Source of the DNA: Escherichia phage PA28
Sequence record: KP682381
DNA length: 61,292 nt
Strand: one strand, 5' to 3'
The stretch's first letter is position 1. Each line of letters begins with the position of its first letter. Positions 51,001-61,292 of the stretch are shown here, piece by piece. The position numbers were made by a program.

Positions 51001-54000
51001 TTGCTGGCGCGAAAAATGGTATCCGTGAAGCCGAACAGGATCGCCAGATGAATATTCTGACGGGGGCTTCTGCACCGGCAAGACAGAAACTGAGTGTTGG
51101 CGGACAACTGGTGGCAGCGTAAGGAGGAAATATGGGATACGGTTTACTGGATATTGCAAATCAGTCGCGGCGTGAGGCATTACAGGGAATAAGCGAGGCA
51201 GACAGACGACGTGAAGAAATTGAGGCGTCAAACAAGATGATGGCGGCGCAGCAGAAAGCTCAGAAAAAACAGAATATCGCCACGGGCATTGGTACGGGGG
51301 CTGCTGTGGGTGCATCTGTGGCAGGCTCCAGCGCTGCAATGGGGGCCACGCTCGGAGCATGGGCTGGTCCCGTCGGGATAGCTGCTGGTGCTGTGATTGG
51401 CGGCATTGCAGGCGCTTTGTTTTAAGGAGTGGTGAATGAGCGGATTTGCACAGGGGTTACTTGCCGGATTCAGCACCGTTGACCAGGCAATGACCCGTCG
51501 TAAGGAGCTTGGTTTGCGAGAAGCACAGCTTGCTCAGCAACAGAAAAATAACGAGCGCGATTTTGAATTTGCGCAGTCGCAGTTTGAGCACCGAAAAGAG
51601 AATGATCAGCGTACATATGATCTTAATGTCAGGAATGCTGACCGTGAATATGCGCTGAAAGAGAGGGAACACAAAGCAGCGCAGAATTATCGAAATGCGT
51701 CACTTGGGCTATCTCAGCAGAGACTGCAACTGGAAAAATACAACCAGCGACGGCTTGAGTATAACGATATGATTGCCCATAGCCAGCCACTAATGGAAGC
51801 GCTTGGAAAAGCAATTGAGGCTGGCGATCAGGAGGCTGCAACGCGTCTGTTCGGGCAGCTGCCAAAGGGACATCCATTAATTCTTATGTCAAACGAAGGC
51901 TATGCAGCGAAAGCGGGTCAGGCCGTGATCAACCTGCAAAAAATCTTTGGTGATAAGCCGGACATGGCGATCGATTCGCTGAATACCCCGGAAAATCTCG
52001 ATGTGCTTTCCGGCGTGTTTGCCCCGGAACTACAACAGCGTATTGGCATGCCTGATTCAACCGGGGAAAAAACGATAAAAGAGGCCAGGATTGGCAGTAT
52101 CGTACCGGCGCAGCAGGAAGGGTACGTACTTATTGGCCTTGATCTCACATACAGCGATGGCTCCACCGCGCATAAACCTGTAACAGAATACGGCAGTGCG
52201 CACCCTGATGATCAAACCGTGCTGGCGATACCCGTTGATAAGGCTATCGCTCAGGTCAGGGATCGCAGCAAATTTGCAGAGATATCGAAAAATTATGGTT
52301 ATTTTATGCCGAAGCAGCAGGGACTTTCTCTGAAAGAGCTTCAGAAGGGGGCCAGCAACGTAGCGGCGGACGCGATCAAGAATGGCGGTAATGCACAGGC
52401 TGCGGTGGATGAATATTATGCTGCGACTGGTTCACAACCGCATCAACAGAAAATTCAGCAACAAAAACTTCAGCAACAGGTTATCAACTGGGCGGGAGAT
52501 GATCCTGATAAGCTGTCATTTGCCAGAAATGTAGCGGCCCGTCAGCCTGAAATGCTGGAGCCTCAGAATCAGAAATTGCTGGAGAACGGGTATGCGAATT
52601 TTCTCCGTATTCAAAAGGCTAGGGGGGAACAGGCCAGAGATGAAAGTGCTTCATCTGCATCTCAGTTTATCCGTGGACTGAAACAGAATTACGCCCAGTA
52701 ATTCACGATATTCCATTAATACCATTTCCTGATGCCCGGCCATTGTGCCGGTTTTTTTATGGAGTCTGTATGGCCTATTCAGAGGAACAGCGTCCTGAGG
52801 CGCAACTCGGTAACCAGAATCGTAACAGCCTGAACATTCAGCAACCCGGCGAAACTGACAGCTATGAAGCATTTTTCTCTGATCCGAATCGCTGGAAGGA
52901 TAACAGTACGTCGTTCAGCCTGGGCGATGTATTGCCAACAATGGGTAAAGGTTTCGCCCAGTCCGTCCGGGGAACAGGGGAAATGGCCCGTGGACTCGGT
53001 GATGCGATGATTCAGAGCCCGGTAAAAACAGGGGCGCGTATTTTAAATGAGTTCAGCCGTATGGGGCTGCCGGGTGTCGCAACTGTGCAGGATATTTTTG
53101 CCGGTGGCAGCAGGGGGGCTGATGAGGTCATCGATACCCTGCCTGATGGCAAAAACGCGGTTACTGATACTGTCGGTAAAGGTCTGAAGGCAACCGGTAA
53201 GGCTGTCAGTGATGGTGCTAAAGCCACTGATGAATGGCTGACCGGTAAGATGTCGCCGGGTGCAGTTCGTGCGCTGAATACGCCGATGACCGAAGGCTAT
53301 GATGATTCTGCGGTCTGGGTGGCGAAGGGTGTAAACCTGATTGGTGCGCTTGTACCTGATATGGTTGCTGGCGGTGTGGCTAAAAAGGTGGGTGATGTCA
53401 CACTGCGAAAAATGCTGACCGCCGGGCTGGAGAAAAAATACATCGCGGCAGGGATGCAGCCGGAAAGAGCCACGGCACTGGCAGCAGAAGCTGTCGATAA
53501 AAAAATGCCGGATTTATTCCAGGCGGGCCTGATCACCCATTCCACAGCCAGTGCACAGGGGCAGAGTGCAATGGCGGCAGCAGATGCTGTTCTTAATGCG
53601 GATTACTCTGAGCTGGCGCAGTCACCGAAATTTCAGCAGACGTTTTTGTCCATTGACGCCGACCCGCAGCACGCACAGCTTACTGATCGCCAGAAAATGG
53701 ATCTGGCAAAAGAGCGTGTTGCCGATGAGGTGCGCGCGCAGCTGGCAACCGATCCTGAATTGCTGGCTGTGAATGCCATGGCGGCAAAACTGGGTGACGC
53801 ACAACTGTTTAATCTGGTGACACGAGGCACAGCGAAGACCGTTAAAAGCGGCATTGTCAGAAATGCCACGGAACAGGGGGCGATTAATGCGGCGCAGGGC
53901 GGCTATTCACGCTATCAGGAAAACACGGCATTGCGTGAGACCGCCGGAATGGATGTGTCACCGTGGGAGGGCGTGGCTGACGCAACGATCGAAGGTGCAG

Positions 54001-60000: not shown

Positions 60001-61292
60001 CCAGCATTCAGGGGACCGCAAACCTGGTGAGAACGCTCGGACATCTTAATGGCGACGGGCCGTTACTGGAGCGCCTTCGCTGGAAGAATCTCAATGTACC
60101 GCAGAAAATCGCGCTTGCAGCTGTGGGAGCGGGTTATCTGCTTGGCTCGCTTAACCGCAGTGTTGCGGGGGAGGATGATGACGGGGTTAACTGGTATGAC
60201 AAGGTGCCGTCTCATGTGAAAGAGCGTAACCTCGTCATTATGAAATCGGTGTTCGGGGGCAAGGCCGGAGAGTACTGGAGTATTCCTCTGCCTTACGGGT
60301 ACAACGTTTTCTTCCTGCTTGGTCACACAGCCGAAGGGATGGCAGCGGGCGACCTGACCGCTTCACGTGCTGCCGGTAATGTTGTTGGTGGTGTGCTTGG
60401 GGCATTCAGTCCTGTGGGCAGTGAAACGTCGGAAACACTGTCCGGGGCATTGCTGAAAAATGCAGCACCGACAATTCTGCGTCCGTTTGCGAATCTTGCC
60501 ATGAACGAAAACTTCATGGGGGCGCAGATTTACCAGGAGAACATGCCGTTTGGTACACCAAAACCTGACAGCCAGCTGGGAAGACGTTCAACGCCAGAAG
60601 CGTACAAGGCGTTTGCATCCTGGCTGAATGCGTTCTCTGGTGGCAGCCAGTACCGTTCCGGTGCGGTGGATGTCACGCCGGAATCACTGAAATACTGGAT
60701 TGACTATATCTCCGGAGGGACAGGGCGCTTCATTTCCAAAACCACGGATGCGGCGGTGAAATCGCTGAACGGTATTGATATACCGGAGCAGCAGGTGCCC
60801 TTCCTGGGGAAAATTTCAGGTGAGGTGATGCCGTATGCTGACCAGCAGAAGATGTACGACCGGATGACAGAGGTTGCGCAGTATCACGCAGAGCTGAAGA
60901 GTCTGACCGGTGCAGAAAGAACGGCGTTCATTGACGAGAACAACGGAAAATTGTCGATGAACGGGCTTATGCAGGATACCCGGAAGAGACTGAAGGATTT
61001 GCGTAAACAGCGTGATGCCATTTACGCCGACAGTACTCTCAGTCTGGCGCAACAGTCGGCGATGGTGAAATCGGTTGAGCGGGATATGAAAATTGCCGTG
61101 GATCGGTTTAACCGCGAGTACAACAAAAAAGTGGGAGTGGAGTAAAGAACATGCCCCGTACGGAAGTGCGGGGCATGCTTAACGGGGTGTGTACATAAAT
61201 GGGTACTGATATGACGATTATTTCGCCACTTTCTGTATTTAAATCAATGACTTAATACTTATATTCATTATATCCATTTAACTAAGAGGACA

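Follow-up and report, generated by a model that had tools for sequence, protein, structure and literature searches.

The window analysed in this study, a 61,292-nt stretch of DNA (record KP682381, Escherichia phage PA28), is the entire genome of a short-tailed Shiga toxin (Stx) phage, running from the integrase gene through a giant gene at its right end. Here we describe this giant gene, the protein that it encodes and the four small genes in front of it, and present evidence that the protein is probably a pilot or ejection polyprotein held inside the virion. An 8.5-kb query was 100% identical to Escherichia phage 06-3462 (OP797663.1; 61,291 bp), an Stx2a-converting Traversvirus (Sepvirinae) from E. 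coli O157:H7; a window coordinate is the OP797663.1 coordinate minus 3. A preliminary description of this DNA had reported a single open reading frame (ORF) of about 8.4 kb and 2,791 amino acids closing the genome, and had taken the lack of a tape-measure gene as fitting a short-tailed virion. All of this was confirmed: the frame is open from start to stop (Table 1), just 147 nt follow the stop codon, the annotation contains no tape-measure gene, and the virus, a Traversvirus, is a podovirus. The start had been placed at 52736, which is the first base of a hairpin and not of the gene. The orthologues in phages Sp5 (ORF80) and phi24B (gp47) are 97.2% and 95.5% identical over the full length and have the same neighbours; Sp5 carries about 4.5 kb more genes 3′ of the giant gene, whereas in the present phage no gene separates it from the genome end.

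In the Sp5 and phi24B database entries the gene begins 13 codons further 5′ (MPGHCAGFFYGVC...), within the terminator hairpin. The T-run of this hairpin differs among alleles, being T7, T8 or T9 (window 52732–52772; L080, 1349; L081, 1801), and because it is T7 in the window, one base shorter than T8, the upstream ATG is out of frame here. The ATG at 52770 after the GGAG is the sole start common to all and is therefore, on this sequence comparison, likely to be the true start. The upstream extension brings the only two cysteines of the protein, and the length of 2793 amino acids cited for Sp5 ORF80 equals 2806 minus these 13 residues. We rejected a signal peptide at the annotated upstream start, given the out-of-frame upstream ATG and the shared ATG 3′ of the GGAG; the 'leader/signal peptide' of the phi24B record is probably an annotation artefact. 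Past the stop codon, the hairpin at 61150–61177 has no T-run on the plus strand, with TTCTTTA next to it on the minus strand, and it may be a bidirectional terminator or a piece of the attachment region.

The giant ORF is real and under selection. In every matching phage record (184/184) the match, at ≥90% identity, extends over ≥80% of the query. The gene is present in 427 of 5426 complete E. coli genomes (~8%), with at least 80% of its length covered in 423 of the 427, and all sampled genomes at this coverage annotate one single LPD38/LPD5 coding sequence. Among about 44 close relatives in IMG/VR most retain 2783–2808 codons, about six copies being truncated or interrupted (L017, L027, L035/L036, L043 and L038), and all 33 distant viral relatives, whose C-terminal parts are 41–75% identical, have giant ORFs of 1957–4180 codons. 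Full-length architectures were drawn from viral loci and a representative-cluster search, as family members in the protein collection appeared to be only fragments or at most ~1660 amino acids long. The preliminary description had named two ways in which the giant reading could fail, namely splitting by frameshifts in related phages, or domain searches returning only tail-fibre repeats with chance HExxH matches. It survived both, since truncated copies are a small minority and domain searches found no fibre repeats.

Table 1 Features of the giant gene, its cassette and its flanks (positions in the window)
Feature	Position	Strand	Basis and remarks
g218, first cassette gene, probably Sp5 ORF76	50017–50673	+	synteny, 0 Cys, phrog_611
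g150, cassette gene	50670–51122	+	syntenic in distant loci; 0 Cys
g97, small, Gly/Ala-rich hydrophobic C-terminal segment	51132–51425	+	syntenic; transmembrane-like peak at residues 71–89
g421, orthologue of Sp5 ORF79 (H0149)	51436–52701	+	syntenic; 95% identity to Sp5 H0149 and phi24B vb_24B_47
Intrinsic-terminator-like hairpin CCGGC-CATTGT-GCCGG + T7	52736–52758	+	5 G-C pairs, 6-nt loop; hairpin 52736–52751, T7 52752–52758
GGAG ribosome-binding site	52761–52764	+	5 nt 5′ of ATG; read from sequence
Giant ORF, 2791 amino acids	52770–61145	+	ATG 52770, TAA 61143–61145; open reading frame read from sequence; orthologues 933W L0134, Sp5 ORF80/H0150/ECs1242, phi24B vb_24B_48 = gp47
N-terminal Gly/Ala-rich module, residues ~85–455	53022–54134	+	jackhmmer, phrog_37568, hydropathy
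Low-complexity hypervariable linker, residues ~456–889	54135–55436	+	composition, allele comparison
Start of conserved LPD5-zincin unit, residues 890–1198	55437–56363	+	Pfam LPD5; KIEDFGEEIKGAAKH motif
Predicted zincin metallopeptidase 1	56364–57083	+	first HExxH + Pfam LPD1 (residues 1359–1438) with EMxARAFExY helix
Second HE-motif domain, residues ~1470–1700	57177–57869	+	HEIIHH at residues 1549–1554; alignment A2
Predicted MuF_C/PBECR RNase-fold domain	58011–58280	+	Pfam, residues 1748–1837
Constant C-terminal module, residues ~1885–2786	58422–61127	+	mostly helical; includes LPD38 (residues 2474–2679, window 60189–60806)
9-bp G+C-rich hairpin (CATGCCCCG...CGGGGCATG), 10-nt loop	61150–61177	+	starts 4 nt past stop; read from sequence

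Four Pfam domains were recognized in the protein, LPD5 (residues 1049–1198; 147 bits, E = 5e-43), LPD1 (1359–1438; 84 bits), MuF_C (1748–1837; 64.2 bits, cut-off 27.6) and LPD38 (2474–2679; 166 bits), all far above their cut-offs of about 27 bits. All four were defined from 'polyvalent proteins' and, with the virion mass spectrometry of an orthologue described below, they uphold the earlier proposal of a polyvalent virion protein architecture. Several distinct effector-type and LPD domains are joined in one very large chain, and the gene adjoins virion genes, being the last of the late morphogenesis region with synteny kept. PHROG 616 aligns end to end with the protein, and its last ~950 residues match the tails of other giant-protein PHROGs, including the 'DarB-like' phrog_10089. 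Neither tail-fibre repeats, collagen repeats nor tape-measure families were found in Pfam, PHROGs or segment scans; the tail fibre is encoded by a separate gene at 41120–43057. No significant match came from PDB sequence searches, whether with the whole protein or with profiles A1 and A3.

The N-terminal module matches phrog_37568, with weak glycine-zipper matches, and a local jackhmmer search of the 33 distant loci placed it, again N-terminal, in 12 of the giants; a word-indexed homologue search with the N-terminus returned only E. coli and Salmonella copies. It also holds the highest hydrophobic peak of the protein (residues 181–199, Kyte-Doolittle 1.38). The C-terminal region had been described as hydrophobic, which is only weakly true: three Gly/Ala-rich helices are present (residues 2443–2549, within LPD38), but their 19-residue Kyte-Doolittle means of 0.9–1.2 are below transmembrane grade. 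The long low-complexity linkers of the preliminary description were borne out by residues ~440–890, a disordered stretch in which P, E, D, Q and R are abundant and which carries most indels and the lowest identity among the E. coli alleles; the segment scan gave no family match for the linker (residues ~456–889). For the N-terminal, linker and second HE-motif segments, Pfam returned only sub-threshold matches (Gly-zipper; Peptidase_M76, E 0.2). The conserved unit opens near residue 890 at KIEDFGEEIKGAAKH, a motif that agrees with the consensus of stand-alone homologues of ~870 amino acids.

The part of the protein that defines its family lies at the other end. Residues ~1885–2786 are conserved end to end at 34–77% identity while their N-terminal partners vary, and the module occurs in proteins of Salmonella, Photobacterium, Halomonas, Amphritea and many metagenomes. 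It is the only part present in all of the 33 distant viral giants, always C-terminal. An exhaustive search found 8555 representative clusters matching the module, 4776 of them at E ≤ 1e-30; among the 150 matches listed it stood at the C-terminal end of proteins mostly of ~1800–5181 amino acids. Named phages that carry it comprise 101 Vibrio phages, Bacillus phage Dartukuta, and Ralstonia GP4-like and Burkholderia Bcep22-like phages. Upstream of it, the relatives carry ART-PolyVal, PBECR5, ResIII/SNF2, Sno-type helicase, RadC-JAB, InPase, GNAT, ddrB-ParB, LPD3 and DUF7178 domains. Structural searches gave no solved structural relative of the module. These comparisons indicate that the last ~900 residues are a constant, family-defining module, upstream of which enzyme cargo is swapped between relatives.

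Two separate HExxH motifs had been reported and both are present, at residues 1282–1286 (ALAHEWFHSLD; window 56613–56627) and 1549–1553 (LRHEIIHHAMEH; window 57414–57428). They are not due to chance, because 0.034 HExxH would be expected in a protein with 36 histidines and none of 2000 shuffles had two or more, and both are kept in distant homologues. In 22 homologues of 27–52% identity H1282, E1283, H1286 and D1289 are invariant, as are E1373, R1377 and E1380 of the LPD1 helix. An HExxH on a helix, with a downstream acidic candidate third ligand, is thus found family-wide, as in zincins. NCBIfam CLCA_X spans residues 1180–1435 as one model, with a score below its cut-off, which suggests that the first HExxH region and LPD1 form a single domain. 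Together they are a predicted anthrax-lethal-factor-like (gluzincin) zincin, the only secure zincin site of the two; its likeness is to lethal factor, PPEP and M32 enzymes, proteases that act on proteins and peptides, and not to the LAS/M23 cell-wall peptidases. The whole block of residues ~890–1700 also exists as stand-alone proteins of ~870–880 amino acids in many metagenomes, at 27–52% identity. These LPD5-zincin-LPD1 proteins of metagenomic phages and mobile elements align with the block, as do polyvalent proteins described by Iyer et al. (2017), and its catalytic-looking residues are invariant; there the block is separate or fused elsewhere, whereas here it lies between the N-terminal module with the linker and MuF_C with the C-terminal module.

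The second motif is of a different standing. In alignment A2 the conservation of H1549, E1550 and H1553 is 90% or higher, and the second histidine is at +4 in the stand-alone ~870-residue family and at +5 (HE-x-x-G-H-x-G) in most giant relatives; the HEIIHH of the present protein is compatible with either spacing. It may really be an HExxxH site, and we regard it as a doubtful second zincin site. No Pfam family matched this domain, and hhalign aligned it weakly (E 3.4e-4, probability 38%) with residues 2203–2360, the HExxH region, of the N4 virion RNA polymerase (vRNAP).

Between this domain and the C-terminal module lies MuF_C. His1750 is conserved in all MuF_C homologues and Ser1814 in all except the most divergent one, and the domain shows the features of PBECR proteins: a family hidden Markov model match, a histidine that lies in or after the N-terminal helix, as well as a Ser/Thr in strand 4. 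It is predicted to be a RelE/BrnT-like BECR RNase fold, not a peptidase. In the phi24B preprint MuF_C is described as a metallopeptidase with a proposed role in degrading peptidoglycan (bioRxiv 10.64898/2026.04.10.717836); we rejected that assignment in view of the predicted RNase fold. Among E. coli copies MuF_C exists as two alleles ~44% identical, with flanks more than 90% identical (residues 1716–1845, window 57915–58304; P0009, P0038, P0142), a pattern that looks like cassette exchange of the RNase-fold domain.

The giant gene is the last of five genes whose products lack cysteine. The four upstream genes, g218, g150, g97 and g421 (50017–52701), precede it in the same order in at least 20 of the 33 distant loci, at 25–58% identity (29–58% for g218, found 5′ of the giant gene in at least 20 loci). 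The five cassette proteins (window 50017–61145) have 0 cysteines in 3677 residues; for the phage's 17 other late proteins the count is 62 in 5814 (1.07%). The distant giants follow suit, 29 of 33 having no cysteine and four having one. Homologues of the four small proteins contain 2 cysteines in 12,706 residues: 0 in 4304 for 20 homologues of g218, 1 in 2046 for 15 of g150, 0 in 13 homologues of g97, and 1 in 5273 for 12 of g421. The g97 and g421 proteins themselves have none. Homologues of g133 and of the nozzle protein have 1.6–1.9%, and g133, directly 5′ of the cassette and outside it, has three cysteines. Pfam and PHROGs gave no informative family and no known function for the four small proteins: g150 matched no known family, and g218 falls in phrog_611 with a weak match to the 'virion structural protein' phrog_8003. 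Cysteine is likewise absent from T7 gp15/gp16, P22 gp7/gp20/gp16 and N4 gp50/gp51/gp52, and its suppression is reported to be conserved in the Schitoviridae ejection operon and has been ascribed to passage through the periplasm (PMC11445570). The cassette thus shows the cysteine suppression across an ejection operon that we take as a mark of pilot proteins.

Genetic and proteomic data exist for near-identical orthologues. In-frame deletion of Sp5 ORF80 left no plaques and no lysogens on K-12 and was complemented in trans, while the yield of DNase-resistant genomes and the head morphology were normal (PMC5155283). Deletion of ORF79 (g421) gave the same phenotype, and deletion of ORF76 (probably g218) reduced lysogenization (PMC5155283). 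In phi24B, gp47 was abundant in mass spectrometry of purified virions and absent from the electron cryomicroscopy model, and an ejection protein was proposed; its length is given both as 2811 and as '>3,000' amino acids (bioRxiv 10.64898/2026.04.10.717836). The Sp5 and phi24B orthologues share LPD5, LPD1, LPD38 and MuF_C with the present protein. Mass spectrometry likewise shows gp69 of JC1, a distant relative, and the proteins encoded upstream of it to be virion-associated (PMC9144972).

Bcep22 gp75, JC1 gp69 (4515 amino acids) and the Ralstonia GP4 giant have the C-terminal module in common with the present protein (26–28% identity over 83–100%) and lie where it lies, at the end of the morphogenesis module and following small virion-associated proteins. 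Their length is much greater and their cargo is different, and their 'DarB-like' name rests on helicase and methylase-type domains, of which the present protein has none. The portal-tail architectures of phi24B and GP4 are closely similar (bioRxiv 10.64898/2026.04.10.717836). The vRNAPs N4 gp50 and DEV gp71 are also giant (~3500 amino acids), cysteine-free and multi-domain, sit in a T=9 head, are invisible to single-particle averaging, adjoin smaller cysteine-free ejection proteins and have an HExxH region; for their ejection a 'beads-on-a-string' model has been put forward. In contrast to N4 gp50, the present protein contains no RNA polymerase, its C-terminal module is unrelated (hhalign probability 0.2%), and the cassette proteins have no detectable similarity to N4 gp51/gp52. 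The T7 gp14/gp15/gp16 and P22 gp7/gp20/gp16 genes likewise belong to the late genes and close the structural module. Mutants of these T7 and P22 ejection proteins produce particles that contain DNA and are non-infective. T7 gp16 carries a lytic transglycosylase, which the present protein lacks, and no ordered internal core was seen in phi24B, unlike the T7/P22 type.

Expression of the gene appears to pass a terminator. The preliminary description had noted a hairpin-T7 terminator 12 nt before the start codon; hairpin and T7 are real, but the spacing is 11 nt, and this gap contains the GGAG. Stem changes among E. coli alleles are compensatory, and an unrelated hairpin with a T-run occupies the same position in Salmonella L040 and in a group of ~55% identity (L045–L049, L059, L077). 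Similar plus-strand sites with T-runs lie at 49117–49135 (after lom), 49974–49993 (before g218) and 52736–52751 (before the giant gene); the total count of terminator-like sites in the region was not above that in shuffled sequence. These three hairpins split the right end of the late region into lom, g133, g218–g421 and the giant gene. No convincing promoter was found between the hairpin at 52736 and the ATG, and the gene is the distal end of the Q-dependent late transcript. It is a reasonable inference that the simplest route to its expression is Q-antiterminated readthrough of the hairpin, as the preliminary description had suggested. The hairpin may also serve to insulate the gene in lysogens or to keep the copy number low.

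Taking these data together, we consider it probable that the giant protein is an essential, virion-internal pilot or ejection polyprotein of Traversvirus Stx phages and the last member of a cysteine-free five-gene cassette. The reading first proposed, an architecture that fits polyvalent virion proteins injected with phage DNA, is supported by the four Pfam domains, by the presence of phi24B gp47 in virions, by the essentiality of Sp5 ORF80 and by the conservation of both HExxH motifs; the protein is probably shot into the cell with the DNA. A few copies would be made late, by readthrough of the terminator 5′ of the gene, and, loosely folded like 'beads on a string', packed into the T=9 head. 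Release of the needle would allow expulsion through the tail channel and the oxidizing periplasm, and this passage would explain the missing cysteine; the smaller cassette proteins would leave together with the giant one. The constant N- and C-terminal modules may serve in incorporation, exit, and envelope or membrane engagement, and the swappable enzyme cargo would act in the first moments of infection. There the most likely target of the zincin would be the polyprotein itself, or else proteins of the host or of defence, and the PBECR domain might bind or cleave RNA.

Several points weigh against this interpretation. We infer ejection into the cell from virion presence, which is what has been reported of the orthologues. 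Pfam, segment scans and hydropathy found neither a transmembrane-grade segment nor a muralytic domain in the protein. The HExxH is missing altogether in about half of the distant relatives, so that, judged from sequence, the peptidase is optional cargo outside the core mechanism. PDB, structural and hhalign searches related the protein to none of the ejection proteins of T7, P22 or N4, either in sequence or in fold. Finally, Sp5 particles lacking ORF80 were not bound by an anti-tail-fibre antibody, from which the authors concluded that the protein acts in tail assembly (PMC5155283).

Three other functions deserve consideration. The phi24B preprint proposes that the protein forms a trans-periplasmic conduit, its metallopeptidase digesting peptidoglycan. 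Short-tailed phages do need an envelope-spanning extension, and the protein, with Gly/Ala-rich amphipathic segments at both ends, is helical, of large size and plentiful in virions. We nevertheless think this unlikely: the peptidase of the proposal is MuF_C, predicted here to be an RNase fold; the predicted zincin is of the lethal factor/PPEP/M32 kind rather than a cell-wall peptidase; no lysozyme or transglycosylase domain was found by Pfam; and half of the relatives do without an HExxH. By analogy with N4 gp51/gp52, the four small cassette proteins would be equal or better candidates for such a conduit.

The conclusion drawn for Sp5 is that of a tail-assembly factor, perhaps an AAA+ ATPase, which builds or attaches the tail and is not ejected (Mondal et al. 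2016, PMC5155283). The mutant particles had DNA-filled heads of wild-type appearance that failed to bind the antibody against the tail fibre (ORF67), deletion of ORF79 had the same result, and the authors reported a COG1483 AAA+ match. Current Pfam and NCBIfam models did not reproduce the COG1483 match, and we rejected it; no AAA+ or other ATPase family was found by Pfam, NCBIfam or PHROGs, nor any ATPase family at E ≤ 1 in whole-protein or segment scans. The phi24B orthologue is abundant in mature virions and missing from the well-resolved portal-adaptor-nozzle-fibre-needle structure, and the cysteine-free signature and polyvalent domains suit internal, ejected proteins. The phenotype itself fits an ejection protein if internal proteins stabilize the portal vertex and so keep tails attached. 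A role confined to tail assembly is, in our view, rather improbable.

An effector purely of counter-defence, a 'DarB-like' antirestriction protein injected to protect the DNA or disable immunity and dispensable for DNA delivery, would account for the DarB-like annotation of the GP4 and Bcep22-like relatives and the phrog_10089 match, for cargo typical of conflict enzymes (ART, PBECR, helicases, ParB), and for the two divergent MuF_C alleles (44% identity) in E. coli, which suggest an arms race. Against it, the orthologue is absolutely required in infection from K-12 to K-12, where there is no restriction barrier. The N6-adenine methyltransferase and helicase domains that are the hallmark of P1 DarB were not found by Pfam, NCBIfam or PADLOC, PADLOC giving no matches at all, and the likeness to phrog_10089 is confined to the C-terminal module, a non-enzymatic part and the only one universally conserved. 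We judge this explanation improbable. The idea of a chance or decayed and frameshifted ORF with accidental HExxH motifs, for which the truncated prophage copies and the PHROGs fragment families of 992 and 939 amino acids might be cited, is already refuted by the nearly universal intactness of the relatives, with giant ORFs kept down to 41% identity, the strong domain matches, the shuffling result, the conservation of both motifs and the protein-level evidence for orthologues.

The breadth of the family allows a more far-reaching version of the ejection hypothesis, which we put forward only tentatively and hold to be somewhat more doubtful than not. It starts from a module without a solved structural relative, always C-terminal and present in 4776 clusters at E ≤ 1e-30. 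This module and the four small cysteine-free proteins might constitute a widespread delivery chassis of phi24B/GP4/Bcep22-type podoviruses, distinct from the T7, P22 and N4 ejectosomes and able to carry nearly any cargo, from zincins, RNase folds and ADP-ribosyltransferases to helicases and acetyltransferases. The version in Stx phages would then be a self-processing injected polyprotein, cut by its zincin after entry.

Other features of the window concern the surrounding genes. An IS3-family element (IS1203/IS629-like; 43213–44522, with orfA and orfB at 43267–44480) splits a small 'tail fiber C-terminal domain' gene 3′ of the gene for the 645-residue tail fibre, pieces of it being annotated on both sides. 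The gene after the nozzle gene (46885–47648) encodes 179 amino acids here and is followed by a 75-residue ORF, at a position where phi24B and P27 have a 422-residue protein; in the phi24B structure the latter is the central needle, gp56 (bioRxiv 10.64898/2026.04.10.717836). By this comparison the needle allele of the present phage is a different or shortened one, and this could bear on receptor use. The window also carries stx2A (319 amino acids) and a 645-residue NanS-p/DUF1737 esterase (23299–24258 and 26339–28276); the esterase has been reported as a processed capsid decoration protein (bioRxiv 10.64898/2026.04.10.717836).

In summary, the giant protein belongs to a kind already known, the virion-packaged phage polyvalent proteins, with near-identical orthologues for which genetic and proteomic data are available. 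Our analysis adds that the protein divides into a constant module and swappable cargo, that its gene ends a cysteine-free cassette and needs a corrected start, that one of its two motifs is a secure zincin site and the other a doubtful one, that MuF_C is to be reassigned from a peptidase to a predicted RNase fold, and that the defining module has no solved structural relative. These additions sharpen the published picture and give targets for mutagenesis, leaving the basic classification unchanged. The gene takes up 14% of the genome in the medically most important Stx2a phages, and its product is essential for the spread of toxin genes by phage. If it were understood how a multi-enzyme protein of 300 kDa is packed, how it is expelled and to what use it is put, this would explain the first minutes of infection by Stx phages and could help to block the transfer of toxin genes.

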